The notes: generated from the letters alone by a model not told the origin. A DNA stretch of 64,000 bases from an uncultured Spirochaetales bacterium (GCA_949289575.1 CASEOG010000001.1:24671-88670), one strand, 5' to 3'. Shown: positions 4,946 through 20,867, counted from the stretch's first letter. Numbers and translations: made by a program.

Positions 4946-4964
4946 GTAACGGAGGAAACCGAAA

Positions 4965-6107
4965 TTGGCTGCAAAGCGTGATTATTACGAAGTCCTGGGA
5001 GTTTCCAAAACGGCTTCCAAAGACGAAATCAAAAAAGCTTATCGAAAACTGGCTATCAAGTATCACCCTGACAAAAATCAGGGTGATGCTTCTGCCGAAG
5101 AGAAGTTTAAAGAAGCAACGGAAGCCTACGACGTTTTGAGCGACGAAAAAAAGCGCGATGCATACGACCGTTACGGACATGCCGGTGTCGATAACATGGG
5201 GCACGATTACAGCCACGTGTATCACGATTTTTCCGATATCTTCGGCAGCGGCGGAGATTTTTCCGATATTTTCAGTTCTTTTTTCGGAGGCGGCGGATTC
5301 GGAGGATTCGGCGGCGGGTCGCGCGGAACTTCGTTTGCCGGCAGCGATTTACGCTACAATCTGACAATTTCGTTTAAAGATGCCGTTTTCGGAACAGCGA
5401 CCGAAGTTTCCTACACACGCAACATTGCCTGTGACGAATGCGGCGGCAGCGGCGCCAAAAAAGGCACGACGCCGAAAACCTGTCCGCAGTGTAACGGACG
5501 CGGTCAGGTTCACCGCAGTGCCGGTTTCTTCCAAATGGCCACCACCTGTCCCCAATGCAACGGACAGGGCGTTGTTATCGAAAATCCGTGTCCCAAATGT
5601 TCCGGGAAAGGGGTTCTGAAAGCCAATCAGAAAATCAAGATCACCATACCGCCGGGAATCGAATCGGGACAAAGACTGAGGGTTCCCGGACAGGGCAATG
5701 CGGGACCGAACAACAGCCGCGCAGGCGACCTGTACGTCAGCGTAACAGTCAAACCCCACCCCTATTTCGAACGGGACGGGCACAATCTGTACGTTATGAT
5801 ACCCATCGCCTTTACCCAGGCGGCGCTCGGATCGGAAGTTACGGTGACAACCATCGATGACAAAAAAATAAAAGTCAAAATCCCGGCCGGAACCCCCAAC
5901 GGAAAACTGCTGAAACTGAAAGGTTACGGCGTTCCTTACGGCGCCAATACCTCTTCAAGGGGCGATTTTTACATTAAACTCGCCATCCGGACACCGGAAA
6001 AAATGAACTCCAAAGCAAAATCATTGCTGCAGGAGTTCGCCAAAGAATACGGCGAAAACAGCGAACCGACCCCGGTCGAGCTCTCCAAAATCGGGAACAT
6101 CGGATGA
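4965..6107 (+). CDS. dnaJ: Molecular chaperone DnaJ
   Basis: The J-domain reads DYYEVLGV...[16 protein letters not shown], followed by a G/F-rich linker and four CxxCxGxG zinc-finger repeats. It starts at a TTG with a GGAGGA ribosome-binding site. Confidence 0.95.
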
Positions 6108-6832
6108 GAACGATTTACGGATTTCACGCCATCGAAGAAGCTTACCGCAAATATCCGCACGGCACACTGCTGGCGGCCGAGAGATTGAATGATCGGGCCG
6201 CCAAAATCAAAGAAGAAGCTGTCCGTGCCGGCATAAAAGTCATGACCGTCTCCGATGAAGAGATCCGCCGTCTCTCCGGCGTTGCCGACTGCAAAGGCCT
6301 GCTCTACCGATGCCGCAGTATCCGCGAAAATTATTCATCGCTTCACGACTTTTTAAAGGCAATCGGCAGCCGGGAAGAAGTCCGGATTTTTATTTTGGAT
6401 TCGGTGACCGATCCCCACAACTTCGGAGCCATCCTGCGGAGCGTCGACCAGTTCGACATGGATCTGGTCATCACCCGGAACAAACGCAGTGCCAAAGAAA
6501 ACGACACGGTAGCCGTCACCTCGGCCGGAGCCGTCAATTACGTCAACACCCTGTCGGTCACCAATCTCAACACCGCCATCGACGAGTTAAAAGACAACGG
6601 CTTTTGGGTCTACGGTGCCGACATCCGCGGTACGGAGCTGCCGCAGGCAAAACTGAACGGCCGCATCGCGGTCGTAATGGGAAGCGAAGGCAAAGGACTC
6701 AGCCGCCTGACCGCCGAAAAGTGCGACGGAAAAATCACCATTCCCACCTGCGGCAACATCGACTCACTCAATGTCAGCGTCGCCGCCGGTATTCTGATGT
6801 ACGAAATCCGCCGTCAAACCCGACAGCTCTAA
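6104..6832 (+). CDS. TrmH/SpoU-family RNA 2'-O-methyltransferase
   Basis: 242 aa. The C-terminal SpoU methylase motifs are present (...[13 protein letters not shown]..., ...[14 protein letters not shown]...). Its ATG overlaps the dnaJ stop in an ATGA arrangement. Confidence 0.75.
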
Positions 6833-7329
6833 GCTTTAATCTGAAAACGGTCCAGCAGTAAAAGAAGAATCTCGGCTACCGGCGGACAAACCTCACCGTT
6901 AAGCTCCGTTTTTTTTAATACCTCTTTGGTCATGCCGTCGAGCAGATGCGGAAATTCGCGGCACGCTTTCGGCCGGTCATTGTAAACCAGACACCGGTTA
7001 TCATCACAGAGAAAAGGACACGGCATCTCGGCAAAGACATAATCGCCGTCTTCGTCGGTTTTCAGATAGCAGGAAATAAACTGCTTTTTTTTCATCCGGA
7101 AATAGTCCGACAGCCGCTCGATGTCTTTATCGAGAAACATCGGTCCCAAACCGGTACAGCAGTTGGCGCACTGCGTACAGTCGTACCTGAAAAAAATCTC
7201 CTGGTATAAAGGGTAAAAAAGAGAATCAAGTTCCTTTTTCGGCCTTTGATTCAGAAAACGAAACAGCGCCTTAATCCGCTTTTTCTCGGCGCGGTAGCGC
7301 ACCAGCATCTGCTCATAATCATCTCTCAT
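6829..7329 (-). CDS. YkgJ-family (CxxCxxCC) zinc/iron-chelating cysteine-cluster protein
   Basis: Cysteine clusters TQCANCCTG and CPFLCDDNRCLVYNDRPKACREFP. The start is taken as the ATG at 7329, which is preceded by GGAGGG; the ORF-track extension to 7386 would overlap the kinase gene by 68 bp. Confidence 0.6.
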   Translation of the reverse strand: MRDDYEQMLVRYRAEKKRIKALFRFLNQRPKKELDSLFYPLYQEIFFRYDCTQCANCCTGLGPMFLDKDIERLSDYFRMKKKQFISCYLKTDEDGDYVFAEMPCPFLCDDNRCLVYNDRPKACREFPHLLDGMTKEVLKKTELNGEVCPPVAEILLLLLDRFQIKA

Positions 7330-8728
7330 ACAAACCCTCCGGAGAAACGGCAATATCCGATTGTCCGCTCTCGACCGACGACACATAAATCGGGACGGTA
7401 ATCATCATCACCGCACCGCCGGCCGGATGATTAAAACAGGAAATCTCTCCGTTATGCAGCTCGATAATCGACCGGACCGACGACAACCCCAAACCGAAAC
7501 CGGGTAAATTACGGTTGCGGTTGCTGCGGTAAAACAGCTCGAAAACATTCTTCTGTTCCTCTTCCGGAATTCCGGAACCGTTATCGCGAACCGTATAAAC
7601 CAGATTGTGCTCATCGCAACGACAGGCAATTTCTACCAAAGGCGATTCGGCATTGCTGTACTTCATCGCATTGTCAAACAAATTTTCGAAACAGCGCAAC
7701 AGCAGCTTCGTATTGCCTTTGATCTTCAAATCGGTCGGAAAATCGACCACCGTCTGCAGCTCGACATGACGCGCCCGCGCCTCTTTTTTAAACATCTTCA
7801 TTGTTGTCTGCAAAAACGGATAAACATCAATCGGCAGAAAACTGCCGGCCAGGCTTCCCGAATCAAAGACCGCATATTCAATCAGACTGAGAATCCGACG
7901 CTCGAGCAAATCGGCCTTCTCTTTCATGATATCGATATATTCGTCGTACTCCTCGTCGCTTTGCGGAATTCCGTCCTGTATGGCCTCCAGATACCCCTTA
8001 ATGGACGTCAGAGGCGTCTTCAAATCGTGGGAAACGGCGAGGAAAAAGCGGGATCGACGCTCTTCCTCCTCTCTCAACTTGCCGGCCATCATTTCGACGG
8101 CGGAAAAAAGTCCGCCGAAATCGCCGGAACGCTCCTCCTCCGAAAAAGCCGTATCGATCTGTCCTGCTGCAACCGAAACAATGGCTTTCTCCAACGTTTT
8201 CAGACTCGAACGAAGCTTGGTGACCACCCGCATCGATAAAATGGCGGGAACCACGAGAAGAACAATCGAAATCAGAATGACGGAGGGAATCACCTGAGTC
8301 ATCCGGTTGGAGACTTTCCCCATCCAGCGGGAAAAATAGATCAGTGTTCCGTACGAATCCTTGTACTGATAGCGGGTAAAAACCAGTCCTCGGTCGGTAT
8401 AGTGATCGGTAATCAGCTGAAGAATATCACTACCGGAAAGCAGATTTTTTTTTGTAAAAATACGCGGATTCAGGTAATGAATCTTGCCGGAATTGTCGAG
8501 CACAAGCAGAATCTCGGAATCAAGCGATACATCATTACCGTCGGCCGGCTCAAAGACCTTTTTGACAAGACGGTGCATATTCCACGGTGCTCCGATTTGC
8601 GTTTTTTCGTTATAAACATACTGCCCGTGAGAAAGGCCCGAATAGAGAATGGCAAAAACAATCACACAGACCAGTGAAGGGACAACGATACCGTAGATCA
8701 GCAAGAGAAGCTTGGACTGAATTTTCAC
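7319..8728 (-). CDS. Sensor histidine kinase (HAMP-HisKA-HATPase_c)
   Basis: 469 aa with two transmembrane segments, an H-box (AVSHDLKTPLTSIKGY), and N/G boxes (FDNAMKYS..., RDNGSGIP, GFGLGLS). Confidence 0.85.
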   Translation of the reverse strand: MKIQSKLLLLIYGIVVPSLVCVIVFAILYSGLSHGQYVYNEKTQIGAPWNMHRLVKKVFEPADGNDVSLDSEILLVLDNSGKIHYLNPRIFTKKNLLSGSDILQLITDHYTDRGLVFTRYQYKDSYGTLIYFSRWMGKVSNRMTQVIPSVILISIVLLVVPAILSMRVVTKLRSSLKTLEKAIVSVAAGQIDTAFSEEERSGDFGGLFSAVEMMAGKLREEEERRSRFFLAVSHDLKTPLTSIKGYLEAIQDGIPQSDEEYDEYIDIMKEKADLLERRILSLIEYAVFDSGSLAGSFLPIDVYPFLQTTMKMFKKEARARHVELQTVVDFPTDLKIKGNTKLLLRCFENLFDNAMKYSNAESPLVEIACRCDEHNLVYTVRDNGSGIPEEEQKNVFELFYRSNRNRNLPGFGLGLSSVRSIIELHNGEISCFNHPAGGAVMMITVPIYVSSVESGQSDIAVSPEGLYER

Positions 8729-9402
8729 TGCAGATAATAGCCTTTTCCGTAAACCGTTTTCAGGAATTCGGGGAACGAAGAATTGGTCTCCAGCCGGTCG
8801 CGAATTCTGCGGATGTGAACGGGAATCGTCGAAATATCGCCGTGCCCGTTACCCCAAATGGCCGAGTAAAGCTCTTCCGCCGAAATAATCTGTCCCCGAC
8901 GCTTGGCCAGATAAATCAGAAGTTCCAGCTCTTTCGGCCGCAGCTTGACTCGGACACCGTTCTTTTTGAGACAAAACGACTCCGGATCGATAATATAATC
9001 ACCGAAAACATAACAATCGCTTTCCTTCTCCGTTGTTTTTTTCTGTCTCTGTATATGAGTCCGAACACGTGCCGTCAGAACACGCGGCGAGAACGGCTTA
9101 CACACAAAATCATCGGCCCCCATTCCGAAGCCGAGCAGCATATCGGCATCCTCGTTACGTGCCGAAACAATGATAACCGGCGTATCACGGGACGCGCGAA
9201 TCTTTTGAAGAACTTCATAACCGTCGATTCCGGGCAGACTCAAATCGAGAATCACCAAATCAAACGTTTCGTTCTGAAACAGCTCGATTCCTTCTTCTCC
9301 TGTCGCTACCGCCACGGCATCGATGCCCTCTTTTTTCAAATAAGCGGAAATCAAACCGGAAATTTCCGTCTCATCTTCAACAATCAATACACGTGCCTGC
9401 AT
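8725..9402 (-). CDS. OmpR/PhoB-family response regulator
   Basis: A REC domain (VLIVEDE...LVILDLSLPGIDG) followed by a C-terminal winged-helix domain (...VHIRRIRDRLE...). Its stop overlaps the start of the kinase gene. Confidence 0.85.
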   Translation of the reverse strand: MQARVLIVEDETEISGLISAYLKKEGIDAVAVATGEEGIELFQNETFDLVILDLSLPGIDGYEVLQKIRASRDTPVIIVSARNEDADMLLGFGMGADDFVCKPFSPRVLTARVRTHIQRQKKTTEKESDCYVFGDYIIDPESFCLKKNGVRVKLRPKELELLIYLAKRRGQIISAEELYSAIWGNGHGDISTIPVHIRRIRDRLETNSSFPEFLKTVYGKGYYLQ

Positions 9403-9442
9403 AAAAAATCCTCACTTTATCTTATCACCTTATTTTATCATA

Positions 9443-11059
9443 TTATTTTAAATTTCCGAAACACTTTTTTACAACTTCGCTGTTTCCGACCTTTGTGCAG
9501 AGCGAGACAATCACCGTCACCGCGGCCGACACCGGCAACGCGTAAACCAGCGGATCGACGAAGCGGAAGCTGTTCATCACCGCGGCCGGCGTTCCGAAAA
9601 GCAGCTGCGGCAAACCGAACACCGCCGATTCGGCTTCGTGGAAAAAGAGAAAGCCGATCACCGCCGCGGCCAGGCCCGACAGCATGCCGGCAATCACCCC
9701 GGTCTTCGTCAGACGCTTCCAGTAAAGCGACAGCAGAAACGGCGCCAGATAACCGGAGGCCATAATACCGAAGAAAATCGACGTGGCGCGGGCAATAATC
9801 CCCGCCCCCATTTTCATCGACAGGAAAATCGTCAGCAGAATCGCCGCAATAATCCCGATGCGGGAAATCAGCACCGAATAACGGCTGTGAATGCGCCCGC
9901 GCGCCGCCGCCTCGAACAGATCGCGGCCGAAGGAAACGCCGATGGCGTGGAACTGACTGCTGAGCGTACTGATAGCCGCCGACAAAATCACCAGCATAAA
10001 GAAATAGGAAAACCAGCCGGGCATCGCCTGCTTAATCAGCAGCGGAATGACACTGTCGGCATTGAAACCGGCCGCCTCCAGCGCCAGTTTGCCGCTTTTT
10101 TCGTAGAAAAAGACATTCGATAACGCCCCGAGAACGTAAGGCGTGGCCACGGTAATCAGAATAAAAAGACCGCCGACCACAACCGCCCGGTTTAACTCGC
10201 GGTTGCTTTTGACGGTGAGGCAGCGCACCGCCAGATGCGGCTGCGCCAGCACCCCGATACCGACGCCGAACACCAGCGACGAATAGAGCACCCACCACAG
10301 CTGCGAAAACGGCTGCGGCGAAGAGAGCCAGCCGCGGTGTCCCTGCGCCGCCGAGGCTTCGGGAACCAGCTCCTTCATGGCGTGAAGTTTGGAAAAGGCC
10401 TCGACGGGACCGCCCAGCCTGACAAACATCGCCACCAGAAGAAAAATCATTCCGAGCGCCATTAAAGTGCCCTGAAGCGCATCGGTGTACATCACCCCGC
10501 GCAATCCGCCGACCAGAACATAAACGGCCACCAGCAGCGAAAAAGCGGCCAACGCCCATTCGTACGGCATCCCCAGCAGACTTTCCAGAATGCGGGCAGC
10601 GCCGATGAGCACCGCCGCCGCATACAACGGCATGGAAACGACCATCACCGCCGCGGTAAACAGCCGCACAAAGGGAGAAGAAACGCGCGCCCCCAGAAAC
10701 TCCGGAAAGGTGTGCGCATTCAACGCCAGCCCCACCGCGCGGGTGCGCCGGCCGAAAACGGCAAAGGCCAGAAAAATTCCGAAAAAGATATTGGCACCGG
10801 CCAGCCACAGAAGACTGAGACCGATTCCGGCCGCCATTCCTCCGAAACCGACAATGGCCGAGGTGGAAATAAAGGCGGCTCCGTAGCTGAGCGCCATTAC
10901 GAAAGGCGGAATGTTGCGCCCCCCGGAAGCAAAATCGTCGCCGTTGCGGGAAGTAATCCGTCCCCAATAACTGAGAAAGGCAATCGCTCCCAGATAGACA
11001 ACAACAACCGCCAGCAAAACGAAAATATTGACATCGAGCGTCACACTGACCGGATTCAC
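9443..11059 (-). CDS. Sodium:solute symporter family transporter (PutP/PanF-like)
   Basis: 538 aa and polytopic, with the general SSF architecture. Confidence 0.7.
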   Translation of the reverse strand: MNPVSVTLDVNIFVLLAVVVVYLGAIAFLSYWGRITSRNGDDFASGGRNIPPFVMALSYGAAFISTSAIVGFGGMAAGIGLSLLWLAGANIFFGIFLAFAVFGRRTRAVGLALNAHTFPEFLGARVSSPFVRLFTAAVMVVSMPLYAAAVLIGAARILESLLGMPYEWALAAFSLLVAVYVLVGGLRGVMYTDALQGTLMALGMIFLLVAMFVRLGGPVEAFSKLHAMKELVPEASAAQGHRGWLSSPQPFSQLWWVLYSSLVFGVGIGVLAQPHLAVRCLTVKSNRELNRAVVVGGLFILITVATPYVLGALSNVFFYEKSGKLALEAAGFNADSVIPLLIKQAMPGWFSYFFMLVILSAAISTLSSQFHAIGVSFGRDLFEAAARGRIHSRYSVLISRIGIIAAILLTIFLSMKMGAGIIARATSIFFGIMASGYLAPFLLSLYWKRLTKTGVIAGMLSGLAAAVIGFLFFHEAESAVFGLPQLLFGTPAAVMNSFRFVDPLVYALPVSAAVTVIVSLCTKVGNSEVVKKCFGNLK

Positions 11060-11247
11060 CGCACACCTCCCGTCAGCTCGTCATCGATACGCTCCTCTTC
11101 CTCCTGCCACCGCGCTTCCTGTTCCTTTTCTTTGCGGGAGAGCACCGCCTCGCGGGCGCCGGCCACGACGCCGTAGACGACACACAGCAGCGCCGAAGCC
11201 AAAAGAAACACGGCACCGAAAAGAACGCTGAACTCGCCGCCTGTCAT
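11056..11247 (-). CDS. Small membrane protein co-translated with the symporter (YhdT/DUF997-like accessory subunit?)
   Basis: 63 aa with one hydrophobic helix and a charged tail. It overlaps the neighbouring genes by 4 bp on both sides, like the small gene upstream of E. coli panF. Confidence 0.4.
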   Translation of the reverse strand: MTGGEFSVLFGAVFLLASALLCVVYGVVAGAREAVLSRKEKEQEARWQEEEERIDDELTGGVR

Positions 11248-12440
11248 TTTGCCGCCTTTTTGCAGTCGGCAAACGCCTTTTCGAAATACGGCAGCGAATT
11301 GAGAATCACCTTATCGGGTACGCAGTAGGAAATGCGGAAATAACCGGGGTACGAGAAGCCGCGTCCGGGAACCGTCAGAATATTGTACTGCGCCAGCCGC
11401 TCGCAATCGGCCGCATCGTCCCCCGACGGCGCTTTGACAAACAGATAAAAGGTGCCCTGCGGTTCGACAAACTCGTAACCGATAGCCGCCAAACCGTCGC
11501 ACAACAGCTTGCGCCGCCGGTCGTAAATGGCAATATCGACCCCGCAATCCTGCGGCAGACGGGCGATGACCCGCTGCATCAGCGACGGAGCGTTGACAAA
11601 ACCGAGAATCCGGTTGCACAATATAAAGCCGGCAACAAGCCGTTCGGCATCTTCGGCCGCCGGGTTCAGGGCAATGTAGCCCAACCGCTCGCCCGGAATG
11701 GAAAGCTCCTTGGAAAAAGAGTTGACCACCACCGCATGCGGATATTTATCGAAAAGAGAAGGCACCGTGCGCCCGCCGTAAACGATGCGGCGGTACGGTT
11801 CGTCGCTGATGAGATAAACGGCGCGCCCCGTCTCTTTCTGTTTGCGCAGCAGCATTTGAGAGAGCTTTTCCAGCACCTGCTGCGAATAAATGTGCCCCGA
11901 CGGATTGTTGGGTGAATTGATAATGAGAGCCGCCGTGCGCGGAGTGATGGCCGCTTCCAGTGCCTCGATATCGGGATCGAAATCGGGCGCACACGGAACC
12001 GTTTTAAAAACGCCGCCGTGGTTTTCGGTATAAAAGCGGTACTCCATAAAACAGGGCGCCGGCGCCAGCACCTCGTCGCCCGGGTTGAGAATCGTCTTTA
12101 AAACAACGTTCAACGCTCCCCCGGCGCCGCAGGTCATCACCACACAGCCGGCCGGAACCGCCGTGTTCTGTTCGGCGGACACACGAGCCGCCACCGCCTC
12201 GCGCGCTTCCTGATGGCCGGCGTTGGACATGTAGCCGTATTTGTTTTCACCCGGGGTGCGGACCCATTCGACGATTTTTTCCTCGAACACCGCCGGAGGT
12301 GCCGCATCGGGATTGCCCAAACTGAAATCGAACACCGCATCGGCACCGTATTTTTGGCGCAGCTCGTTGCCGCGCTCGAACATTTTTCTGATAAACGAAC
12401 CGCCCTCAATCGCGGCCGCCGTTCTTTCCGAGATAGCCAT
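11244..12440 (-). CDS. PLP-dependent aminotransferase, class I (aspartate/alanine aminotransferase family)
   Basis: 398 aa. The fold-type I lysine-region motif is present (...NSFSKELSIPGERLGY...). Confidence 0.8.
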   Translation of the reverse strand: MAISERTAAAIEGGSFIRKMFERGNELRQKYGADAVFDFSLGNPDAAPPAVFEEKIVEWVRTPGENKYGYMSNAGHQEAREAVAARVSAEQNTAVPAGCVVMTCGAGGALNVVLKTILNPGDEVLAPAPCFMEYRFYTENHGGVFKTVPCAPDFDPDIEALEAAITPRTAALIINSPNNPSGHIYSQQVLEKLSQMLLRKQKETGRAVYLISDEPYRRIVYGGRTVPSLFDKYPHAVVVNSFSKELSIPGERLGYIALNPAAEDAERLVAGFILCNRILGFVNAPSLMQRVIARLPQDCGVDIAIYDRRRKLLCDGLAAIGYEFVEPQGTFYLFVKAPSGDDAADCERLAQYNILTVPGRGFSYPGYFRISYCVPDKVILNSLPYFEKAFADCKKAAK

Positions 12441-12555
12441 AAATACTCCTGTGTTTCCATTATATACAAAAGAAGAAAAAAAGACCAGACCCCGCTACGA
12501 ACGATAGGCGGTAAGATTCACCCGTCTTATACCGCCGAACGGAAACAATTTGTTA

Positions 12556-12584: not shown

Positions 12585-12626
12585 TAATTGATAATATACT
12601 TTAAAATCTTTTCAGAGGAAATTCTG

Positions 12627-13529
12627 ATGGCAGATATCAAGCTTTTCAATATCAAAGGTGAAGTTAAAGAATATCAAAGCGGTACGGTTACACTGGAAAA
12701 AGAATTACAAACAATTATCGAGAAAAACATGGAAACCTTTTTCGGTGTCACCTTTTTAGCTACGGAATATCGTACCACCGACGGCGGAAGAATGGATAGC
12801 ATCGGTATTGACGAAAACCATTGTCCTGTTATCTTTGAATACAAACGATCAATGAAAGATAATGTCATCAATCAGGGTTTATTTTATCTGAACTGGCTTC
12901 TTGACCATAAAGACAGTTTTAAAGTGCTCGTTATTGAAAAACTGGGGCTAAATGCTGCCGAAAATATCGATTGGTCTATGCCCCGTGTTGTTTGTATTGC
13001 CGGTGATTTTACAAAATATGACGAATCTGCCATTAAACAAATGAATCGAAATATCAGTCTCATTCGCTATAAAAAATTTGATGAAGATTTACTTATGTTT
13101 GAGCATCTCAATGAAAATACTGTTCCCTCCTTCGTTGACGAAACATCCGATGTATCGATATCAAAACAAAAAAACGCTCAAAGATCATTTGCGGCAAAAA
13201 AGAAAGAGGCATCGCCAGAAATCATCGCTCTATACGAAGACCTAAGAAACTATATATTAAGTCTCGGAGACGATATTACGGAAAATCAACTCAAACATTA
13301 TGTGGCATTTAAAAAGATGAAAAACATCGCCTGCATCGAGATTTTTCATAACCGTCTTATTATGCATCTTAAGTTGAACTCTGATTCCGTTAATTATGAA
13401 GACGGATTTACCCGCAACACATCCCAAATCGGTCATTACGGGACCGGTAATGTGGAAGTCACTATTCGCAACAGAATCGATTACGAAAAAGCAAAACCCT
13501 TATTGGACAGATCCTATAACGAAAATTAA
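12627..13529 (+). CDS. PD-(D/E)xK nuclease-superfamily protein (NucS/DUF91-like N-terminal domain plus an uncharacterised C-terminal domain), encoded on a low-GC islet
   Basis: 300 aa. The N-terminus reads ...EKELQTIIEKNMETFFGVTFLATEYRTTDGGRMDSIGIDENHCPVIFEYKRSMKDNVINQGLFYLNW..., which gives the D-x(n)-E-x-K pattern (D..IFEYK) and the usual restriction-endonuclease-like spacing. The gene is about 33% GC against roughly 52% in the flanks, and has its own promoter and terminator. Confidence 0.6.
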   Translation: MADIKLFNIKGEVKEYQSGTVTLEKELQTIIEKNMETFFGVTFLATEYRTTDGGRMDSIGIDENHCPVIFEYKRSMKDNVINQGLFYLNWLLDHKDSFKVLVIEKLGLNAAENIDWSMPRVVCIAGDFTKYDESAIKQMNRNISLIRYKKFDEDLLMFEHLNENTVPSFVDETSDVSISKQKNAQRSFAAKKKEASPEIIALYEDLRNYILSLGDDITENQLKHYVAFKKMKNIACIEIFHNRLIMHLKLNSDSVNYEDGFTRNTSQIGHYGTGNVEVTIRNRIDYEKAKPLLDRSYNEN

Positions 13530-13623
13530 AGCAAATTTTCAAAAACCCGAACCCTTTTCCCCCTTTCCTCATCCCCACCCGAAGATGATTTCGGTGACTC
13601 GTTTATATGAGACTTTCTCCGGA

Positions 13624-13661
13624 AACTCTGAGAGATTTCTAAAAAACTCTCAGAGTTTTTT
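13624..13661 (+). terminator. Rho-independent terminator of the islet gene
   Basis: An 11-bp perfect stem (aactctgagag at 13624-13634 pairing with ctctcagagtt at 13647-13657), a 12-nt loop, then TTTTTT. Confidence 0.6.
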
Positions 13662-13709
13662 AAAAAACATAGGACGTTTTTCGAGTTTTTTAGAAAACGT
13701 AGGACGTTT
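13653..13709 (+). repeat. Two tandem 27-bp imperfect direct repeats, each containing an AAAACGT-AGG-ACGTTT palindrome
   Basis: Copy 1 is gagttttttaaaaaacataggacgttt at 13653-13679 and copy 2 is gagttttttagaaaacgtaggacgttt at 13683-13709. They are 25/27 identical with a 30-bp period, and sit about 100 bp upstream of the GGDEF gene. Confidence 0.6.
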
Positions 13710-13806
13710 GTTCGGTCAGAACGGGAATCTGTTCTCCGCGGCATAAAAATTATCCTGTACAAACCGGAGAGAATATGCTAACATTGGAAATATCGGAAAT
13801 ATTTTT

Positions 13807-14808
13807 ATGGATGATTTGCGGCAAACACAAAGAAAAGCGCCGGGCAATGAGAAAACGCTCAAACGGAAAATCGAAGACCTGACCTCGTTCATGGTGCGCA
13901 AACATTACTGCGAAAACGATACCAAAGCACTCATCGATTTGATAGAAGAGCCTTTCAGCTGGATCGGTGCGGGAGAGCAGGAATATGCTGTCGGTGCGGA
14001 GAATGTGATTTCCGCCTTCCGGCAGTTTTCCGGGAAGGTGCCGTCCTGCATTGTCTCCGACGAGCACTACGATGCTGTCCCTATCGGAGAGGGTATCTGG
14101 CTGTGTTCGGGTCATTATCGGGTGCAGACCGACCCGTCAACGGAAACATTTCTGCGTGTTCACCAGCGTATTACCGCCGTTTTCCGAATGAAAGATGACG
14201 GATCTTTCTGCTGCTCCCACATCCACATTTCCAATCCCTACAGCGAGATGAATGATACCGATATCGGTTTCCCGACGCAAATGGCCAACGATTCGCGCGA
14301 ATATCTGCGCGAGCAGATTGCGGCTCAAAAGAAACTGATTGACAGGCAGACACAGCGGCTGATGCAACTCAGTTTCCGGGATACGATGACAGGACTTTAT
14401 AACCGCAACAAATTTAATCAGGAAATGCACAAAAGAACGCGACGGGAAGAAAAATCACTTCCTTTGGGAGTTGCCTATTTCGATCTCAACGGACTGAAAG
14501 AAGAAAACGACCGCTTCGGCCACGAAGCCGGCGACAAGCTGATAATCCGAACCGCCGACCATATTAACCGTTCTTTCGGTGACAAGACATACCGCATCGG
14601 AGGAGACGAGTTTGTGGTTATCGACAGGGAATCCGATGAACGGCAGTTCGTCTCGCTGATTGAAACGGTTCGCGAAAACCTGAAGCTGGACGGCATCAGT
14701 GTTTCGGTCGGCGTCCGGTGGCGGGCCGGCGGCGGCAACATTACAGAGCAGTTTCATGAAGCCGATCGGCTGATGTATGAAGAGAAACACCGTTTTTACC
14801 GCGACTGA
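13807..14808 (+). CDS. Diguanylate cyclase (GGDEF domain) with an N-terminal NTF2/SnoaL-like sensor domain
   Basis: The C-terminal GGDEF domain has an intact active site (YRIGGDEFVV) and the ...FDLNGLKEENDRFGHEAGD... region. The N-terminal 150 aa resemble an NTF2-like fold (...GHYRVQTDPSTETFLRVHQRITAVFRMKDDGSF...). The start codon is uncertain because no clear ribosome-binding site is visible. Confidence 0.8.
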   Translation: MDDLRQTQRKAPGNEKTLKRKIEDLTSFMVRKHYCENDTKALIDLIEEPFSWIGAGEQEYAVGAENVISAFRQFSGKVPSCIVSDEHYDAVPIGEGIWLCSGHYRVQTDPSTETFLRVHQRITAVFRMKDDGSFCCSHIHISNPYSEMNDTDIGFPTQMANDSREYLREQIAAQKKLIDRQTQRLMQLSFRDTMTGLYNRNKFNQEMHKRTRREEKSLPLGVAYFDLNGLKEENDRFGHEAGDKLIIRTADHINRSFGDKTYRIGGDEFVVIDRESDERQFVSLIETVRENLKLDGISVSVGVRWRAGGGNITEQFHEADRLMYEEKHRFYRD

Positions 14809-14820
14809 AACGGGAGGGAT

Positions 14821-15471
14821 ATGAAGCATCGTCGATTGCGAATCACGGTTTTGTCGTTCATTTGGGGAATTCTGTTTCCGCTTTCCCTGACGGCGCACCC
14901 CCACGTTTTTATGGACTGCCGCACCGAGCTGCTGTGGGAGAACGGCCGGCCGGCACGCTGCCGGATTGAATGGGTTTTCGACCGTTTTTTCAGCAGCGAT
15001 ATTATCAGAGGCTTCGACCGGGACGGAGACGGCCGCTTCAATGAGAAAGAGAAAGAGGCGGTTTATAACGGCGCCTTTATCAATCTGAAAAATTACGGCT
15101 ATTTTACCTTGATTCGTGCGCAGGGAAAAACTTTCCGCCCCGAGACGGTTTCCGGTTTTACCGCCTCCCATTCCGGCGGAAGACTGACCTATTCGTTTAC
15201 CGTCGATATTCCCGAAGAGGCGGCTCTGCCCTTTTCGATTGCCGTTTACGATGTCACTTTTTTCTGCAGCATCGAATACGATGCCGACCGGCCGATTCTC
15301 TTTCGCAATGTGCCTGCCGGACAAAAGGTTTCTTACCGCGTGGTGCAGACAAAGGAAAATCCGGTTTATTATAATCCGATGGGAGCGGTCAACGACAATG
15401 CGGTCTACAACGAATGGAAGCCGGGGCTGGAAACCTTTTACCCGATTGAAATCGAAGTGAGTGCCCGATGA
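14821..15471 (+). CDS. DUF1007-family periplasmic protein (partner of NicO-type Ni/Co transporters; COG3683-like)
   Basis: A signal peptide is followed by the HPHVFMDCRTELLW motif typical of DUF1007. Its stop overlaps the next start by 4 bp. Confidence 0.6.
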   Translation: MKHRRLRITVLSFIWGILFPLSLTAHPHVFMDCRTELLWENGRPARCRIEWVFDRFFSSDIIRGFDRDGDGRFNEKEKEAVYNGAFINLKNYGYFTLIRAQGKTFRPETVSGFTASHSGGRLTYSFTVDIPEEAALPFSIAVYDVTFFCSIEYDADRPILFRNVPAGQKVSYRVVQTKENPVYYNPMGAVNDNAVYNEWKPGLETFYPIEIEVSAR

Positions 15472-17438
15472 GACGGACGGTTCTCTTTCTCTTTTTTCTG
15501 GCGGTGTCGGCCGGTGCGTTATGGGGCAATCCTTTTTTTTCGGCACCCGACGCGGGCAACACCGATTCGCCCTCGTCGGCAAACGAAACCACGGTGCAGC
15601 CGGCGCCCGTCCGTTCGCAGGCTGTTTCCGCCGATTCGGCACGGACGCAAAAACATCTGCGGGAAAAAATGGGCGATCTCCTCGACCGGATGGCTCATCC
15701 TCAGTCGCCTCGGGAACGCCGTTCGTTGCTGATTTCGCTGTTTCTGCTGTCGTTTGCCTACGGTGTGTTTCACGCTTCGGGGCCGGGGCACCGGAAAACG
15801 TTGGTTTTCGGACTTTATACGGGGCGCCGGGCGCCGGTTTGGGAACCGGCTCTGACCTCTTTTCTGCTGGCGTTTCTCCACGGCGGTTCGGCAGTCATTC
15901 TGATTCTTCTGTTTAAAGGGGTGGAAGGTTCGCTCGGACAGCGCATCGACCGGTTTGCTCTTTACATGGAAGGCTTTTCGTATCTGCTGATTATTCTTCT
16001 TGCCGTTGCCATTTTTGCCGGTGCGGCGGTCGAATATGCTGCTTTTTTAAAAGGACGTCAAAAGAAAGCCCGTTTTTCCGGTTATTTTCTTTTTCTTCTT
16101 TCGGGTCTCTATCCGTGTCCGGGAGCGGTGCTGGTGCTGATTCTCTCCTACACGCTCGGGATTCCGGCCTACGGTCTTTTTGCGGTGGCGGCAATGTCGC
16201 TGGGAATGGCTCTGCCGGTTGCGGCCGCCGGTTATCTGGCCTGGTTCGGCCGCGAAGGCATTTTTCTCGCCTGCCGTAAACGAGAGTCGCTTCTGCACCA
16301 TATCACATTCGGCGTCACCGCTTTCAGTTCGCTCTTTCTGATTGGATTTTCGATTTATATCGCGTCGCCCTTTTTCTCGTCGCTGATTCCCCGAAAACCG
16401 TTTTCTCCCGTTGCGGTCGAAACAGAGGCCGATTTACGCACCGTAACCGACTTACTGGGACGCACGGTTACGATTCCCTGCCGGGTCGAGACGGTCGCTA
16501 CCCTCAACAGTGCGGCTCGTCTGGTTGTTTATGCGGGGGCGGCGCACAAATTGTGCGGTGTTACCGAAACAGACCGGAAAGGGGTCGAGGGAATGCCCTA
16601 CTCGTATGTGAATAAACAGTTCTTTTCCGGTTTGACGCTGACCGGTTCGGGCGGCAGCAGCGATACGGTTTTTTCCGAAAATCTGGTGTTGCTCGACCCC
16701 GATGTCGTGTTTGCTTTCACCGGCGACCGAGTGAGACTGGATCGTCTTTCAAAACAGACCTCCCTTCCGATCATCGGTCTCTCCGCATCGGGGATGTTTG
16801 CCGACGATTTTCTCGAATCTCTGACACTCATCGGAACGGTAACCGGCTGCGAGGTCGAAGCGGCACGGGTGGTCGAAGCGTTAAAGGGGTGGCAGACCGA
16901 TTTGACGGTCCGAACGGAAGAAATTGACGACGAAGCAAAACCGACGGTTTACATGGGCGGCATGGGCTTTCGCGGTCCGCACGGGTTTGACGGAACCTGC
17001 GCCCTCTATCCCCCTTTTACCGTCATTGCAGCCGCCCATATTGCCGATTTACCGGGCCGCTCGGGGCCTTTTTTGATGAATCCCGAAACGGTGGCCGCCG
17101 CCGATCCCGATATTATTTTTTTAAATCCTTCCAACCTTCCTCTGATTCGTGAGGATTACAACCGTCACCCCGATTTTTACCGAAGCCTGAAAGCGGTTCG
17201 CGAGGGCCGTCTTTACAGTCAGGTTTCTTATAATTACAATTCGACCAATATGGAAATCGCCGTTGCCGATGCCTACTATGCCGGCACTGTTCTCTACCCC
17301 GAAGCCTTTGCCGATATCGACTTCGCCGCCAAGGCCGAAGAGATTTTCGAAACAATGCTCGGCTGCCGTTATCTGCCGGTACTGGATGCGGCCGGAATCG
17401 GATTTTCGAAACTGTCGCTCGACAAGGAGGCTCCGTGA
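15468..17438 (+). CDS. Fusion protein: NicO/RcnA-family nickel/cobalt permease domain plus a C-terminal TroA/FecB-like (Peripla_BP_2) substrate-binding domain
   Basis: 656 aa. The N-terminal 300 aa are polytopic and carry the NicO signature FHASGPGHRKT (HxxxPGHxK). The C-terminal 330 aa look like a class III substrate-binding protein (...PTVYMGGMGFRGPHGFDG..., ...DPDIIFL...). It is a single uninterrupted ORF. Confidence 0.6.
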   Translation: MRRTVLFLFFLAVSAGALWGNPFFSAPDAGNTDSPSSANETTVQPAPVRSQAVSADSARTQKHLREKMGDLLDRMAHPQSPRERRSLLISLFLLSFAYGVFHASGPGHRKTLVFGLYTGRRAPVWEPALTSFLLAFLHGGSAVILILLFKGVEGSLGQRIDRFALYMEGFSYLLIILLAVAIFAGAAVEYAAFLKGRQKKARFSGYFLFLLSGLYPCPGAVLVLILSYTLGIPAYGLFAVAAMSLGMALPVAAAGYLAWFGREGIFLACRKRESLLHHITFGVTAFSSLFLIGFSIYIASPFFSSLIPRKPFSPVAVETEADLRTVTDLLGRTVTIPCRVETVATLNSAARLVVYAGAAHKLCGVTETDRKGVEGMPYSYVNKQFFSGLTLTGSGGSSDTVFSENLVLLDPDVVFAFTGDRVRLDRLSKQTSLPIIGLSASGMFADDFLESLTLIGTVTGCEVEAARVVEALKGWQTDLTVRTEEIDDEAKPTVYMGGMGFRGPHGFDGTCALYPPFTVIAAAHIADLPGRSGPFLMNPETVAAADPDIIFLNPSNLPLIREDYNRHPDFYRSLKAVREGRLYSQVSYNYNSTNMEIAVADAYYAGTVLYPEAFADIDFAAKAEEIFETMLGCRYLPVLDAAGIGFSKLSLDKEAP

Positions 17439-18496
17439 GCTGTTCCGCCTATAAGGGAAGTTATACCGGATATATCCGCCGCAAAAAACGGTTTTTGGCG
17501 CTTCTGTTGCTGCTCACCGTGCTGACCGCTTTTGCGGCGCTCGCTTTCGGACCGGCCGGGCTGTCGCTGCGGGAAACGGCCGCAGCCCTTTTCGGTTTCG
17601 GTTCGCCGCAGGCCCGAACCATTCTGTTTCAGATTCGGCTGCCGCGGATTTTAACGGCAATCGTTGCCGGTATCGGGCTGGCCTCCGCCGGATGCATAAT
17701 GCAAAGCCTTTTAAAGAACCCGCTGGCGTCGGCCTCGACACTGGGCGTTTCCCAGGGCGCTGCTTTCGGAGCAGCCTTTGCCATTACCGTTCTGAATGCG
17801 GGGGTTCAGAGTCCGACACCCGACACGGTTTCGTTTTCCGATCCCTATCTGATTTTTCTCTGTGCCTTTGCCGGCTCGCTGCTGCCGACGGTGCTGATTC
17901 TGATGCTTTCCTGTTTTCGGCGGGTTTCGCCCGAGGTGATGATTTTAACGGGTGCGGCTCTCTCTTCGTTCTTCTCGGGCGGCGTCATGATGCTGCAGTA
18001 CTTTGCCGACGAGTTGAAGATTGCCGCCGTGGTTTTCTGGACTTTCGGTAATCTCGGCAACACGGCGGGACGGGAAATTGCAATCATGGCCGTCGTCACA
18101 ACGGTTTCCTTTCTCTTTTTCTATTTGAACCGCTGGAACTGCAACGCTCTGCAAACGGGAGAAAACAGCGCCAAGGGACTCGGCGTCGATACCGACCGGT
18201 TGCGCATCGGCGGCATGCTGATTGCTTCGCTGACCGCTTCCGTTATTGTCTCATATATCGGAATCATCAATTTCGTCGGTCTGATTGCGCCTCATCTCAT
18301 GCGGCGGCCGGTCGGCAGCGATTACCGTTATCTGTTACCGGCTTCGGCGCTCTGCGGTTCGCTTCTGCTGCTTGTCAGCGATACGGTTTCGCGGTTGATT
18401 CTGCCTCCGGTTGTTCTTCCCATCGGTGCCGTGACAACCTTTCTCGGAGCCCCGCTCTTTCTTTTTCTCATTTTAAAAGGAGAACACCATCGATGA
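17435..18496 (+). CDS. FecCD-family ABC permease (iron-siderophore / cobalamin / metal-chelate type)
   Basis: 353 aa with about ten transmembrane helices and a BtuC/FecD-like profile (...LLKNPLASASTLGVSQGAAFGAA...). Confidence 0.8.
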   Translation: MSCSAYKGSYTGYIRRKKRFLALLLLLTVLTAFAALAFGPAGLSLRETAAALFGFGSPQARTILFQIRLPRILTAIVAGIGLASAGCIMQSLLKNPLASASTLGVSQGAAFGAAFAITVLNAGVQSPTPDTVSFSDPYLIFLCAFAGSLLPTVLILMLSCFRRVSPEVMILTGAALSSFFSGGVMMLQYFADELKIAAVVFWTFGNLGNTAGREIAIMAVVTTVSFLFFYLNRWNCNALQTGENSAKGLGVDTDRLRIGGMLIASLTASVIVSYIGIINFVGLIAPHLMRRPVGSDYRYLLPASALCGSLLLLVSDTVSRLILPPVVLPIGAVTTFLGAPLFLFLILKGEHHR

Positions 18497-19245
18497 TCCG
18501 TATCGAACATCTTGCTTACGCCTACCACGGGCATCATCCCGCTCTCGACGATATCTCCTTTCATCTGGAACAGGGAGAACGTCTGGCGCTGTTGGGCAAC
18601 AACGGTGCCGGAAAAAGTACGCTTTTGAAATGTCTCAACCGCATTCTGGAACCGCCGGCGGGAACCGTTTTTCTCGACGGCTGCGATGTCAAACGGATGC
18701 GGCGCAACGAGATAGCCAAAATGTGCGCCTACGTCGACCAGCAGCCGCAGATGCCCCGCCTTTCGGTCTTCGATACGGTTTTAATGGGTCGCAAGCCTTA
18801 CATCCGCTTCGAACCGACGGCGTTTGACCGTGAGCGGACGGAGGAGGTTCTCGAACTGTTGAGACTTTCTGCGTTTGCGCCCCGTTATGCCGACGAACTG
18901 TCCGGCGGCGAACGGCAAAAGGTGGCCCTGGCCCGGGCCCTGGTTCAGCAGCCGCAGATTCTGCTTCTCGACGAACCGACGGCGGGGCTCGATTTACGCA
19001 ACAGCAGGGAGGTTTTGGAGCTGATTCGCACCGTTTCCTGTGAACAGAATCTGACGGTGGTCACGGTTCTCCATGATCTTGACCGGGCTTTGCGCTGCTG
19101 CAACCGCTTTTTGCTGATGAAAAAGAAGAAGATCGCTCTTTTCGGAGACGAATCGGTTTTAACGGACGATGCGGTTTCGCATGTCTACGAAACGCCGGTC
19201 AAAATCAGAATGATCGAGGGACGCAGGACGGTCATTGCCGATTAA
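18493..19245 (+). CDS. ABC transporter ATP-binding protein (FecE/BtuD-like)
   Basis: Walker A (GNNGAGKST), the ABC signature (LSGGERQKV) and Walker B (LLLDEP) are all present. Confidence 0.9.
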   Translation: MIRIEHLAYAYHGHHPALDDISFHLEQGERLALLGNNGAGKSTLLKCLNRILEPPAGTVFLDGCDVKRMRRNEIAKMCAYVDQQPQMPRLSVFDTVLMGRKPYIRFEPTAFDRERTEEVLELLRLSAFAPRYADELSGGERQKVALARALVQQPQILLLDEPTAGLDLRNSREVLELIRTVSCEQNLTVVTVLHDLDRALRCCNRFLLMKKKKIALFGDESVLTDDAVSHVYETPVKIRMIEGRRTVIAD

Positions 19246-19270
19246 ATCGATTTTTTTAAGGAAGAAAAAT

Positions 19271-19801
19271 ATGAACGAAGAAATGATGTGGGAAAAATGT
19301 GTCTCGTTTCACGGTCACGTATGCGGAGGGCTGACAATCGGATTCAAGGCGGCTCTTTATGCAGCCGAACAGCTTCGCCTCTCCTTTTCGAAAGACGAGG
19401 AAATTGTCTGTATTGCCGAAAACGATGCGTGCGGAGTCGATGCAATTCAGGTCATGCTCGGCTGTTCCGTCGGCAAAGGAAATCTTCTGTTTCATATCAC
19501 GGGCAAGCAGGCTTTTTCGTTTTACAACCGGCAGACAGGAGAATCGCTGCGACTGGTACTCAATCCGCGGCCGCAAAATATCTCCCGTGAGGAATCGGCC
19601 GCTTATTACCGCAGCCTCGAGCCCCGGCAGATGTTTACCGTTAAGGAAACGGTCATTCCGCTTCCCGAGCGGGCGCCCCGTTTCGATTCCTTTGTCTGCG
19701 AAGAGTGCGGCGAAACGGCCGGCACGCGGTGGCTGCGGATGGAGGGCGGGCGCCGACTGTGTGTCGACTGCTGCCGTTTAACCGACCGGTTTCATGTTTA
19801 G
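19271..19801 (+). CDS. FmdE-family protein with a C-terminal zinc-ribbon
   Basis: The FmdE motif ...CVSFHGHVCGGLTIGFKAA... is present, with a C-terminal CEECGE...CVDCC zinc-ribbon. The start is taken as the ATG at 19271, which follows an AAGGAAG ribosome-binding site. Confidence 0.6.
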   Translation: MNEEMMWEKCVSFHGHVCGGLTIGFKAALYAAEQLRLSFSKDEEIVCIAENDACGVDAIQVMLGCSVGKGNLLFHITGKQAFSFYNRQTGESLRLVLNPRPQNISREESAAYYRSLEPRQMFTVKETVIPLPERAPRFDSFVCEECGETAGTRWLRMEGGRRLCVDCCRLTDRFHV

Positions 19802-19818
19802 AGGCCGCTGCCGGCACG

Positions 19819-19857
19819 AAAAAAAAGGGAACCCGCGCAGGCGGGTTCCCTTCCTTC
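19819..19857. terminator. Bidirectional rho-independent terminator between convergent genes
   Basis: An A8 tract, then a 10-bp GC-rich perfect stem (gggaacccgc, loop gcag, gcgggttccc at 19827-19850), then ttccttc. On the minus strand it reads as a hairpin followed by T8. Confidence 0.65.
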
Positions 19858-19886
19858 GGAGCAAGCGCCGTTGCGGGCGGCCGCTC

Positions 19887-20867
19887 TTATTTTTCGAAAT
19901 CGGCAAGCGGTTTCAGAATATTGCCGAGGGCGTAGATGCTGACGGCATACTCTTTGCCGCTTCCGGCGACCGTCACGGCAAAACGCTCTTCGCCGGCGGC
20001 GGCTGCCGAAACGCAAACCGTCTGCTTTGTCCCGTCACGGAATCCGAGAACCAGGGTGACCGCGGCGTTTTCGGCCGTCACCCCCGTTGCGGGAATCACC
20101 AAATCGGCTCCTTTCAGTTCCGTAATCTGGCGCACAAACGAGTCGACTCTCATTCCGTCAATCCCTTTATCGGAGCCTTCCGCTTTCCACACCAGCTCTT
20201 TATCGTTTTCGCTTCCGACCGTGCGGATCAGAGTGTAATCGAAGGTTCCGCCCTCTTCCAGCGGCGAAGTTCCTTTCACGCTCACCGACTGGACATCGCT
20301 GCTCTTCGAAGCGTCGGCAAACAGCTTTAAATTCACCCAGTGGGAACGCTGACCGTAAAGACTCATGCCCGGATCGGACGTCTCATAAACCTGCTTGTCG
20401 CCTTCGGCGCGCACATACCGGAAACCGGGACGGTCGGCCACCGCATTACCGAACAGAAGCAGAATTTCGCTGCCGTTGTCCGAAACCAGTTTAATATAAG
20501 CGGTTGCGCTTTCGGAGGCCACCCCGAACTGTCCGTATTTTTCTTCGTTGGCCGTAATTTTTTTACCGCGCGGCAAAGCGGCCACTGCCGACAGAAAGGC
20601 GGAGACCCGGCTTGTGTCGGCGGGCGCTGCCGTTCCGTCGTAATCGACCGCCCAGAGTCCCTCTTCGGTTTCGGTGACTGTGACGGTTTTCTCTTCGGAA
20701 AAGAGTTCGATTTGATTCACTTTTTTCCCGGAGAACGAGGCCAAAAGCGGTTCGTTCTGCGCCCGGCTGCTGCGGCAGTTTCCGGAAAAGAAGATGCCGA
20801 GCAGCAACGTCAGCGTCAATACGGCGCACAAAGACGCCAGCACAATGATTTTATTTCGGTCACTCAT
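19887..20867 (-). CDS. DUF4340-domain protein (accessory to a Gld-like ABC-2 exporter)
   Basis: 326 aa with an N-terminal membrane anchor. It is the last gene of an operon that also has ATPase, ABC-2 permease and GldG-like genes. Confidence 0.5.
   Translation of the reverse strand: MSDRNKIIVLASLCAVLTLTLLLGIFFSGNCRSSRAQNEPLLASFSGKKVNQIELFSEEKTVTVTETEEGLWAVDYDGTAAPADTSRVSAFLSAVAALPRGKKITANEEKYGQFGVASESATAYIKLVSDNGSEILLLFGNAVADRPGFRYVRAEGDKQVYETSDPGMSLYGQRSHWVNLKLFADASKSSDVQSVSVKGTSPLEEGGTFDYTLIRTVGSENDKELVWKAEGSDKGIDGMRVDSFVRQITELKGADLVIPATGVTAENAAVTLVLGFRDGTKQTVCVSAAAAGEERFAVTVAGSGKEYAVSIYALGNILKPLADFEK

Follow-up and report, generated by a model that had tools for sequence, protein, structure and literature searches.

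The subject of this report is a gene fusion in a 64,000-nt stretch of DNA (the window) from an uncultured Spirochaetales bacterium (GCA_949289575.1 CASEOG010000001.1:24671-88670). Five co-directional open reading frames (ORFs) on its + strand, at 14821-19801, encode a DUF1007 protein, a NicO-type permease fused to a Peripla_BP_2-type substrate-binding protein (SBP), a FecCD-type permease, the ATPase of an importer of the ATP-binding cassette (ABC) type and an FmdE-family protein. The NicO-SBP fusion, 656 aa in length (15468-17438), is a real, conserved single gene. The whole combines two known metal-uptake modules in a domain architecture that is new; each part belongs to a known family, and the arrangement is a curiosity, not a new principle. 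We explain it, with moderate confidence, by the insertion of a cassette that exchanged the membrane anchor of the SBP and set side by side two uptake routes for one metal, most likely nickel.

Could so long an ORF be an artefact of assembly or of a frameshift, or a decaying pseudogene? Two single cases might be cited in favour. In P0188 (305 aa), a member of the fusion's 90% identity cluster, a frameshifting deletion at the linker brings a stop after helix 6; this would be either a mistake of assembly or a naturally occurring ‘fission’ or pseudogene allele, and it also weighs against the explanation that we prefer. In P0181 (658 aa) the hydrophobic N-terminus is altered, being replaced by the product of the overlapping GTG-15461 frame. 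Against these stands the rest of the evidence, by which an artefact or pseudogene is effectively refuted. Eighteen contigs of up to 327 kb encode the exact 656-aa protein, always within the order GGDEF-DUF1007-fusion-FecCD. The cluster contains 19 sequence variants (13 of the 15 listed are 656 aa long), which differ by 0-18 substitutions spread across both halves and come from independent samples and assemblers. A second species (L002/L003, ~82% nucleotide identity, two runs) has the identical architecture and length, with three 656-aa variants. Besides the exact protein, 15 variants are 656 aa long. Aligned with L002, the window shows no gaps; at a synonymous divergence (dS) of ~0.3-0.6 across DUF1007, NicO and SBP, the ratio of non-synonymous to synonymous divergence (dN/dS) is 0.16 for DUF1007, 0.15 for the NicO transmembrane (TM) domain and 0.15 for the SBP domain. 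Both halves of the fusion are under purifying selection. An earlier note, made by a model from the sequence alone, had taken the ORF for a true single-gene fusion, and so it is; no orthologues with separate NicO and SBP genes at this place were found, the orthologous loci having either the 656-aa fusion or neither DUF1007 nor NicO.

What are the two halves? In what follows, residue numbers are those of the 656-aa protein and Pfam scores are set against gathering cut-offs. The fusion opens with a signal-like segment (residues 1-23, 15468-15536), evident from hydropathy, in which N21-P22-F23, after a hydrophobic stretch with an MRR start, is conserved among NicO relatives. The six-helix membrane domain (residues 87-307, 15726-16388), on which Pfam, hydropathy and AlphaFold2 agree, matches NicO (PF03824) over residues 89-202 with 32.5 bits against a cut-off of 27.7. 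Its motifs H102-ASGPGHRK and P216-C-P are invariant among 32 NicO relatives; the six-TM core is present, with the HxxxPGHxK motif in the first TM helix and PCP in the fourth. In the same 32-sequence alignment the candidate metal ligands H102, H108, H138 and C217 are invariant, and E168 nearly so. Stand-alone NicO homologues end ...YIA(W/M/L)PF(F/L)xxL. The NicO part of the fusion ends there too (...IYIASPFFSSLI), and the protein then reads on with PRKPFSPVAVETE... Since the stand-alone end coincides with the junction, the NicO part is complete.

A linker, placed by comparison of junction sequences (residues 308-325, PRKPFSPVAVETEADLRT, 16389-16442), leads to the SBP domain (residues 326-656, 16443-17438). 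This matches Peripla_BP_2 (PF01497) over residues 375-583 (38.7 bits against 27.5) and the solved structure PDB 2ETV (T. maritima TM0189) over residues 327-651, with E = 4.7e-64, or 3e-133 when a profile is used. The lobe glutamates E404 (SENLVLLDPD) and E540 (NPETVAAADPD), alignment columns E84 and E220, are invariant in 12 homologues, and the RGPHG motif is conserved. From sequence context only, we take E404 and E540 to be the equivalents of the BtuF docking glutamates E72 and E202. The searches with profiles for NicO, Peripla_BP_2, DUF1007 and FmdE, like those for FecCD and ABC_tran, all gave scores above the Pfam gathering cut-offs. The earlier note had recognised the N-terminal NicO by its signature FHASGPGHRKT and the C-terminal half as a class III SBP, correctly in both cases; its further term ‘TroA-like’ was loose, the domain being PF01497 (class III/cluster A-2, FhuD/BtuF type) and not PF01297 (ZnuA/TroA type).

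How did the fusion arise? An allele without it is present in the same species. Locus L001, whose flanks are 98.6-98.9% identical to those of the window, has the order GGDEF - 396-aa SBP - FecCD - ATPase - FmdE, without DUF1007 or NicO. Where L001 has 176 bp (7983-8158), the window has a cassette of 1606 bp (14800-16405, + strand); no blastn alignment crosses 14800-16405, on either side of which blastn gives 98.6-98.7% identity, and the breakpoints were read directly. The cassette runs from the final two codons of GGDEF through the intergenic region and DUF1007 into NicO, as far as about residue 313. The 176 bp that it replaces encode the native N-terminus of the SBP (MVMGQKRKPLSDGGFCVGKLSRKQKTVFSAALSVLAC...), a signal anchor that is hydrophobic and lipoprotein-like. 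The unfused operon is also found in L004-L006, L007 and L009, and, without GGDEF, in L008, L010, L011, L012 (Treponema sp. OMZ 840) and L013. Judged by these comparisons, the unfused operon is the ancestral state and the fusion a derived insertion. Fused and unfused alleles coexist in one species, an uncultured spirochaete of gut type, and the fusion is restricted to one small clade.

The linker may retain a trace of the event. In frame, its codons 309-313 (RKPFS) correspond to codons 7-11 (RKPLS) of the precursor of the unfused SBP, with 13/14 nt identical (window 16392-16405, L001 8019-8032), a match reached by 11/2000 shuffles. From about residue 313 onward the fusion is again homologous to the mature SBP. 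The in-frame trace suggests an entry of the cassette among the first codons of the SBP gene, followed by deletion of the signal anchor, now redundant. It must be weighed against this that the significance of the trace is only moderate and that L002 does not show it.

The cassette has also moved between species. Between the window and L002 its dS is 0.33-0.43, lower than that of the SBP (0.60), FecCD (0.80) and GGDEF (1.22), which indicates lateral spread by recombination. How widely is the fusion distributed? An exhaustive HMMER search of 1.84 billion representative proteins found both halves covered only by the fusion's own cluster (P0001); the other top matches cover one half only, and no GTDB species representative has the fusion. 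The NicO-SBP fusion is apparently unique. The only other long match in the representative search, P0114 (685 aa), proved to be an unrelated N-terminal region joined to a partial SBP, and not a NicO fusion.

If NicO is a membrane protein, on which side of the membrane does the SBP domain lie? Hydropathy shows the N-terminal signal-like segment, a hydrophilic stretch of 63 residues, predicted to be periplasmic, and six membrane helices, and K/R-rich loops (106-130, 189-207 and 258-280) alternate with neutral or short ones. From this positive-inside pattern, and from the even number of TM helices after the signal segment, the stretch after helix 6 is predicted to be periplasmic, and with it the NicO C-terminus and the SBP domain. 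The AlphaFold2 model of residues 1-320 (predicted local distance difference score, pLDDT, 86; predicted template-modelling score, pTM, 0.80) places the helices in agreement with hydropathy; no solved structural relative of this NicO model was found. Between helix 6 and the first SBP strand the tether measures ~18 residues, while in the free SBP some 27 residues separate the putative lipobox Cys37 from the same strand.

What does this mean for the binding protein? The SBP domain is 96% identical in aa sequence to the free SBP of L001, and the fused and unfused alleles encode FecCD proteins that are 98.9% identical, ATPases that are 99.2% identical and FmdE proteins that are 100% identical. Because its partners are nearly unchanged and its lobe glutamates invariant, the SBP domain most likely still serves its ABC importer, NicO having replaced its membrane anchor; this is the simplest reading. 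The earlier note spoke of two mechanistically different transport modules stitched together. The covalent join stands, but with the ABC partners unchanged it need not mean mechanistic coupling.

What of the partners of the fusion? DUF1007 (216 aa, 14821-15471, + strand; 138.5 bits against a cut-off of 27, E = 4e-40) has a signal peptide followed, after an alanine, by the mature N-terminus HPH (H26-P27-H28), which is invariant in nine diverse DUF1007 sequences. The same nine conserve an EF-hand-like loop (residues 64-75, DRDGDGRFNEKE), for which there is a weak PDB match to the EF hand of RasGRP2. The HPH terminus and the loop suggest two metal sites, and DUF1007 is presumed to be the periplasmic metal-binding partner of NicO. 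With the NicO ligands invariant and the HPH terminus and EF-hand-like loop intact, DUF1007 and NicO would presumably form a second uptake route. The two make up a known module, as the earlier note held; in six other loci (L014, L015, L018, L020, L101 and L103), too, DUF1007 is always paired with NicO and lies directly upstream of it. One further protein, P0029 (458 aa), is a fusion of another kind, with DUF1007 N-terminal to NicO in a single polypeptide; a tethered periplasmic domain is therefore tolerated by this permease family at both of its ends.

Downstream of the fusion and likewise on the + strand are the type II ABC permease (FecCD, 17435-18496, 282 bits, 5e-84) and the ATPase (ABC_tran, 18493-19245, 125 bits, 3.5e-36). 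They are followed by FmdE (PF02663, 176 aa, 19271-19801, 110.9 bits against 22.9, 6e-32), with HxHxC at 26-30 and CxxC at 155 and 176, giving an HxHxC + Cys metal site, and a match to PDB 2GLZ (E = 4e-11). We presume it to be an intracellular acceptor or handler of the metal.

From these elements we propose the following course. The ancestral operon would have been GGDEF - membrane-tethered class III SBP - FecCD - ATPase - FmdE, an ATP-driven importer of a metal or its chelate. Then, in one lineage, a cassette of DUF1007 and NicO would have been inserted into the first SBP codons, the SBP's own signal anchor would have been lost, and NicO would have come to read straight into the mature SBP. 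The last NicO helix would exit to the periplasm; the SBP would be exported, held by NicO through a linker of ~18 residues, and would dock on the FecCD/ATPase importer as before. DUF1007 and the six-helix secondary permease NicO would provide an ATP-independent uptake route alongside the importer, and FmdE would take the metal in the cytoplasm. The fusion would thus swap the anchor and also oblige two routes for the same metal to be co-expressed and co-localised in 1:1 stoichiometry. In this scheme we infer transport by both modules, its direction, the nickel substrate and the role of FmdE.

Which metal might be carried? Two genomic contexts converge on nickel. The closest NicO relative with a readable context (46% identity, L018/L019) lies in a DUF1007-NicO-NikR operon (L018 6361-8691). 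In three Clostridia (L010, L011 and L013, with SBPs 49-62% identical to ours) larE-larB-larC is contiguous with SBP-FecCD-ATPase-FmdE. The ABC genes lie upstream of the lar genes in L010 (lar region 3028-5893; 4-bp overlap) and L011 (3163-5983; 24-bp gap), and downstream of them in L013 (9029-11758). The LarC assignment, with 214.7 bits against a cut-off of 90, passes NCBIfam equivalog cut-offs. LarB, LarC and LarE synthesise the nickel-pincer nucleotide cofactor (PMC12611868). The NiuBDE system of H. pylori is a FecCD-type ABC importer with a class III SBP that carries nickel (PMC5140060), and the solvent-exposed His/His/Cys/Cys site of the FmdE protein 2GLZ held mixed Zn/Ni (PMC2954224). If the rest of the model holds, we put nickel at about an even chance. 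The substrate had been left in the earlier note as Ni, Co, a corrinoid or another metal, and context narrows it towards nickel, inconclusively.

Several observations weigh against nickel. In 80 metagenome loci that contain a homologue of the SBP (36-60% identity), lar, nikR, DUF1007 and NicO are all absent within 8 kb, which limits the lar link to three genomes; FmdE adjoins the ABC genes in 50/80 of these loci. Neither NikR nor any recognised nickel enzyme lies within the 64-kb window, and lar genes are missing from both the window and the spirochaete loci. As for 2GLZ, its Ni may have come from the purification resin. The architecture could be as described and the substrate something other than nickel, whether a corrinoid or cobalt, or else iron, zinc or manganese in free or chelated form; we consider this less likely than not. 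In L089 a homologue of 38% identity stands behind a cobalamin riboswitch, together with the late cobalamin genes cobQ-cbiB-cobD, and the best NCBIfam match of our permease is BtuC. DUF1007-NicO pairs lie beside ZnuA/ABC-3 importers (L014, L015), beside a DtxR-family repressor (L103) and, in B. pertussis, beside a SitABCD-like importer (PMC9858536). The window has a DtxR-family gene of its own, and the closest solved SBPs are annotated as binders of iron/siderophores or of molybdate. On the other hand, the cobalamin, Zn and DtxR contexts belong to distant homologues (31-43%), whereas NikR (46%) and lar (49-62%) accompany closer ones. A BtuFCD identity was rejected: BtuC scores 209 against a cut-off of 334 and BtuD 132 against 281, and other equivalog cut-offs were missed as well, none of those for BtuC, FhuB, FecC and FecD being reached by the permease (NCBIfam). 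Nor does any Rfam family, and hence any riboswitch, reach threshold in the 11 closest loci or in the window, where the earlier note had seen neither a cobalamin nor a NiCo riboswitch in the 12-bp gap upstream of DUF1007; cobalamin riboswitches were found only in the distant homologue loci L089 and L036.

Does NicO import at all, and does its link to the SBP do more than anchor? E. coli RcnA is a Ni/Co efflux pump of the NicO family, and with an exporter among the relatives the direction of transport by our NicO is an inference. Were NicO an exporter of the RcnA type, ATP-driven import would be coupled to safety-valve efflux, the SBP being fused to a pump only as its anchor. We think this very unlikely. 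There is a weak match of residues 208-300 to the RcnA subfamily model of NCBIfam (NF007454), but with 18 bits against a cut-off of 195. RcnA has a His-rich cytoplasmic loop that our NicO lacks, loop 189-207 being without His. The permease is always paired with a secreted DUF1007 bearing the N-terminal HPH; it has ZnuABC-type uptake systems as neighbours, and in L018 it is paired with NikR, which typically acts as a repressor of uptake genes once Ni is plentiful. Somewhat less remote, but still improbable, is mechanistic coupling, in which the tethered SBP, alone or with DUF1007, would hand ligand to NicO, or the fusion would regulate or gate the ABC importer, the covalent link having been selected for hand-off and not only for anchoring. 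The fusion has persisted through dS ~0.4 and has outpaced its flanks in spreading between species; the two modules seem to deal with the same metal; DUF1007-NicO pairs repeatedly adjoin metal ABC importers; and P0029 shows a family that tolerates, and perhaps uses, tethered periplasmic binding domains. But fused strains have FecCD, ATPase and FmdE unaltered and still possess the docking glutamates, as befits the SBP's old job; the unfused allele coexists within the species; and the fusion occurs in one small clade among 1.84e9 representatives although both modules are widespread. We give little credence to any mechanistic role of the link beyond anchoring and co-localisation, and as little to its most elaborate form, a hybrid uptake machine with two energy sources in which the tethered SBP and DUF1007 would capture nickel or its chelate and feed the NicO pore as well as FecCD. 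The exchange of anchors remains the reading that we prefer.

How does the locus compare with known systems? DUF1007-NicO modules of the COG3683/COG2215 type (B. pertussis BP3078-BP3079, L018) have, as here, DUF1007 first and then NicO, with overlapping stop and start. HPH in DUF1007 and HxxxPGHxK and PCP in NicO are invariant in them, as here, and in B. pertussis, L014 and L015 they adjoin a metal ABC importer, again as here. Unlike in those modules, our NicO has no stop and continues into a binding domain of 330 residues, and the importer is of the FecCD/Peripla_BP_2 type, unlike the ZnuABC/ABC-3 neighbours found there. In the literature searched we found no biochemically characterised DUF1007-NicO module and no functional study of DUF1007. 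With RcnA our NicO shares the Pfam family and the HxxxPGHxK/PCP signature; it differs in falling far below the subfamily cut-off, in lacking the His-rich loop, in having DUF1007 rather than RcnB as its partner and in its uptake-like context.

The importer itself resembles the class III (cluster A-2) systems BtuCD-F, FhuBCD and NiuBDE, each with a Peripla_BP_2 SBP, a FecCD permease and one ATPase gene. The SBPs of those systems are free or lipid-anchored, whereas here the SBP is the C-terminal domain of an unrelated permease, and unlike them the module includes an FmdE gene. With NiuBDE only the architecture is shared: NiuB/CeuE (4INO, 4LS3) is distant (profile E = 3e-5 to 6.5e-5), and 2ETV, 4MO9, YiuA and MolA rank far ahead of it among the profile matches of the SBP.

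The whole belongs to no fused class so far described. ABC importers of the OpuA/GlnPQ type have the SBP fused to their own transmembrane domain. As here, a short covalent linker to a membrane domain takes the place of a lipid anchor; there, however, the SBP is fused to the permease that it feeds, and here to NicO, which is not an ABC protein, FecCD being the separate ORF 17435-18496. The tripartite ATP-independent periplasmic (TRAP) and tripartite tricarboxylate (TTT) transporters are SBP-dependent secondary transporters. They are analogues only for a reading in which the SBP feeds NicO, and share no homology with the fusion. FmdE proteins have a His/His/Cys/Cys site and a C-terminal treble-clef zinc ribbon, and most of their genes adjoin genes of metal-ion transporters (Axelrod et al. 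2010, PMC2954224). Our FmdE has the same two-domain make-up as the family described there and directly follows a metal-type ABC importer; genes for a formylmethanofuran dehydrogenase are absent here.

Why should so restricted a fusion matter? Because one species has both the ancestral and the derived allele, in operons that are nearly identical in all else, the locus is a natural experiment. Can the lipid or signal anchor of an SBP be swapped for an unrelated membrane protein, with the ABC partners unchanged? Is there a benefit in having two uptake routes for one metal on a single transcript and at a single spot in the membrane? It is a natural experiment, too, on the birth of a gene fusion, by insertion into the first codons and subsequent loss of a redundant signal anchor. 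The contexts give leads for three poorly characterised families, namely DUF1007, NicO of the uptake type and transporter-linked FmdE. Those of lar and NikR suggest a role in nickel supply, including supply for the nickel-pincer cofactor, and FmdE-linked ‘iron complex’ ABC importers may be the nickel suppliers of Lar enzymes. If the nickel link is true, SBP-FecCD-ATPase-FmdE would be a widespread nickel importer now annotated as an ‘iron complex’ transporter. If the SBP does feed NicO, then NicO would be a secondary metal transporter that depends on an SBP and is physically docked to an ABC importer, and one recent enough in origin for fused and unfused alleles to be segregating still within one species.

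The distant homologues and the DUF1007-NicO pairs show further variety in their gene content. A TrmO_N-like gene stands between ATPase and FmdE in L071 (10996-11937) and L089 (within the set at 3129-12462), and a class I S-adenosylmethionine-dependent methyltransferase gene is present in L012 (8902-9732), L021 (1073-1882), L025 (963-1793) and L029 (6498-7268). Extra genes so varied imply that the FmdE-linked ABC family is functionally heterogeneous. In L008, which holds a 60%-identical relative, a five-gene ABC operon of the Opp/Nik type (2134-7631), divergently placed next to the SBP-FecCD-ATPase-FmdE module, was considered as a nickel system and set aside, Opp4, NikA-E and Cnt all scoring below their NCBIfam cut-offs. 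Among the DUF1007-NicO pairs the accompanying regulator or importer changes with lineage: a DtxR-family regulator in L103 (316-2626), NikR in L018/L019 and a divergent ZnuA/ABC-3 importer in L014 (668-4132) and L015 (1735-6837). In L014 and L015 an IS200-like (Y1_Tnp) gene lies between DUF1007-NicO and ZnuA/ABC-3, and the two share the motif TTATTCACACA(A/C)CCATGT(G/A)ATTTTGCATGCAG upstream of DUF1007.

The layout of the operon is largely that given in the earlier note, from which the five co-directional genes were all recovered. It had spoken of 4-bp overlaps. Three junctions have them (15468-71, 17435-38 and 18493-96); that between ATPase and FmdE probably has not. The FmdE ORF is open from TTG 19235, but its start is most likely ATG 19271, which is preceded by a ribosome-binding site (RBS), AAGGAAG, and leaves a gap of 25 bp after the ATPase gene; the FmdE proteins of relatives are called as 176 aa, in keeping with ATG 19271. 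FecCD starts with GTG, preceded by the RBS AAGGAGG. The zinc-ribbon FmdE that was said to close the operon does so, with a C-terminal CxxC...CxxC ribbon. The GGDEF gene noted immediately upstream (13807-14808, + strand; Pfam GGDEF 4e-22) encodes a diguanylate cyclase with a SnoaL-like N-terminal domain (SnoaL_3, 7e-5) and, as the first gene of the conserved operon, ends 12 bp before DUF1007; a GGDEF gene directly precedes the SBP or the fusion in all syntenic spirochaete loci. The DtxR-family repressor placed elsewhere in the window is present too, a DtxR/MntR-family gene (Fe_dep_repress + Fe_dep_repr_C, 144 aa) at 63291-63725, at the window end and 44 kb away; its targets may lie beyond the window. 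The L103 DtxR-family protein is 32% identical to it. Other genes of the window include cheB-cheY-cheX, grpE-dnaK-dnaJ and Rnf genes. The nearest GTDB representative with a syntenic locus is ‘MAG: Spirochaetia bacterium SUG3664’.

As to regulation, a scan of 13400-20000 for promoters and terminators gave counts near shuffle expectation and was uninformative, and no common palindromic operator was found upstream of the DUF1007-NicO modules, GGDEF and the DtxR gene of the window. The locus, to judge from its patchwork of identities, is a recombination mosaic. The region upstream of the operon (12588-13865) varies between strains: the window and L001 (5781-7050) have a DUF5655 gene there, and L017 (1-1340) has an N6/N4 DNA methyltransferase gene and a gene for a 147-aa protein. 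Identity between window and L001 is only ~50-85% over the GGDEF promoter together with the 5' two-thirds of GGDEF, and ~75-85% over those two-thirds taken alone, whereas the 3' third of the gene is 100% identical. Upstream of GGDEF lies a cluster of short repeats (13600-13720; L001 ~6780-6880, L002 ~190-290, L017 ~1110-1240). It includes AAACTCTGAGAG / AAACTCTCAGAG, with the perfect palindrome TAAAAAACTCTCAGAGTTTTTTA, and then 2-3 copies of AAAAC(A/G)TAGGAC(G)TTTTT, and it is kept in fused and unfused alleles and across species in which the surrounding DNA is 74-82% identical. The cluster may be the site of a regulator or the terminator of the upstream gene.

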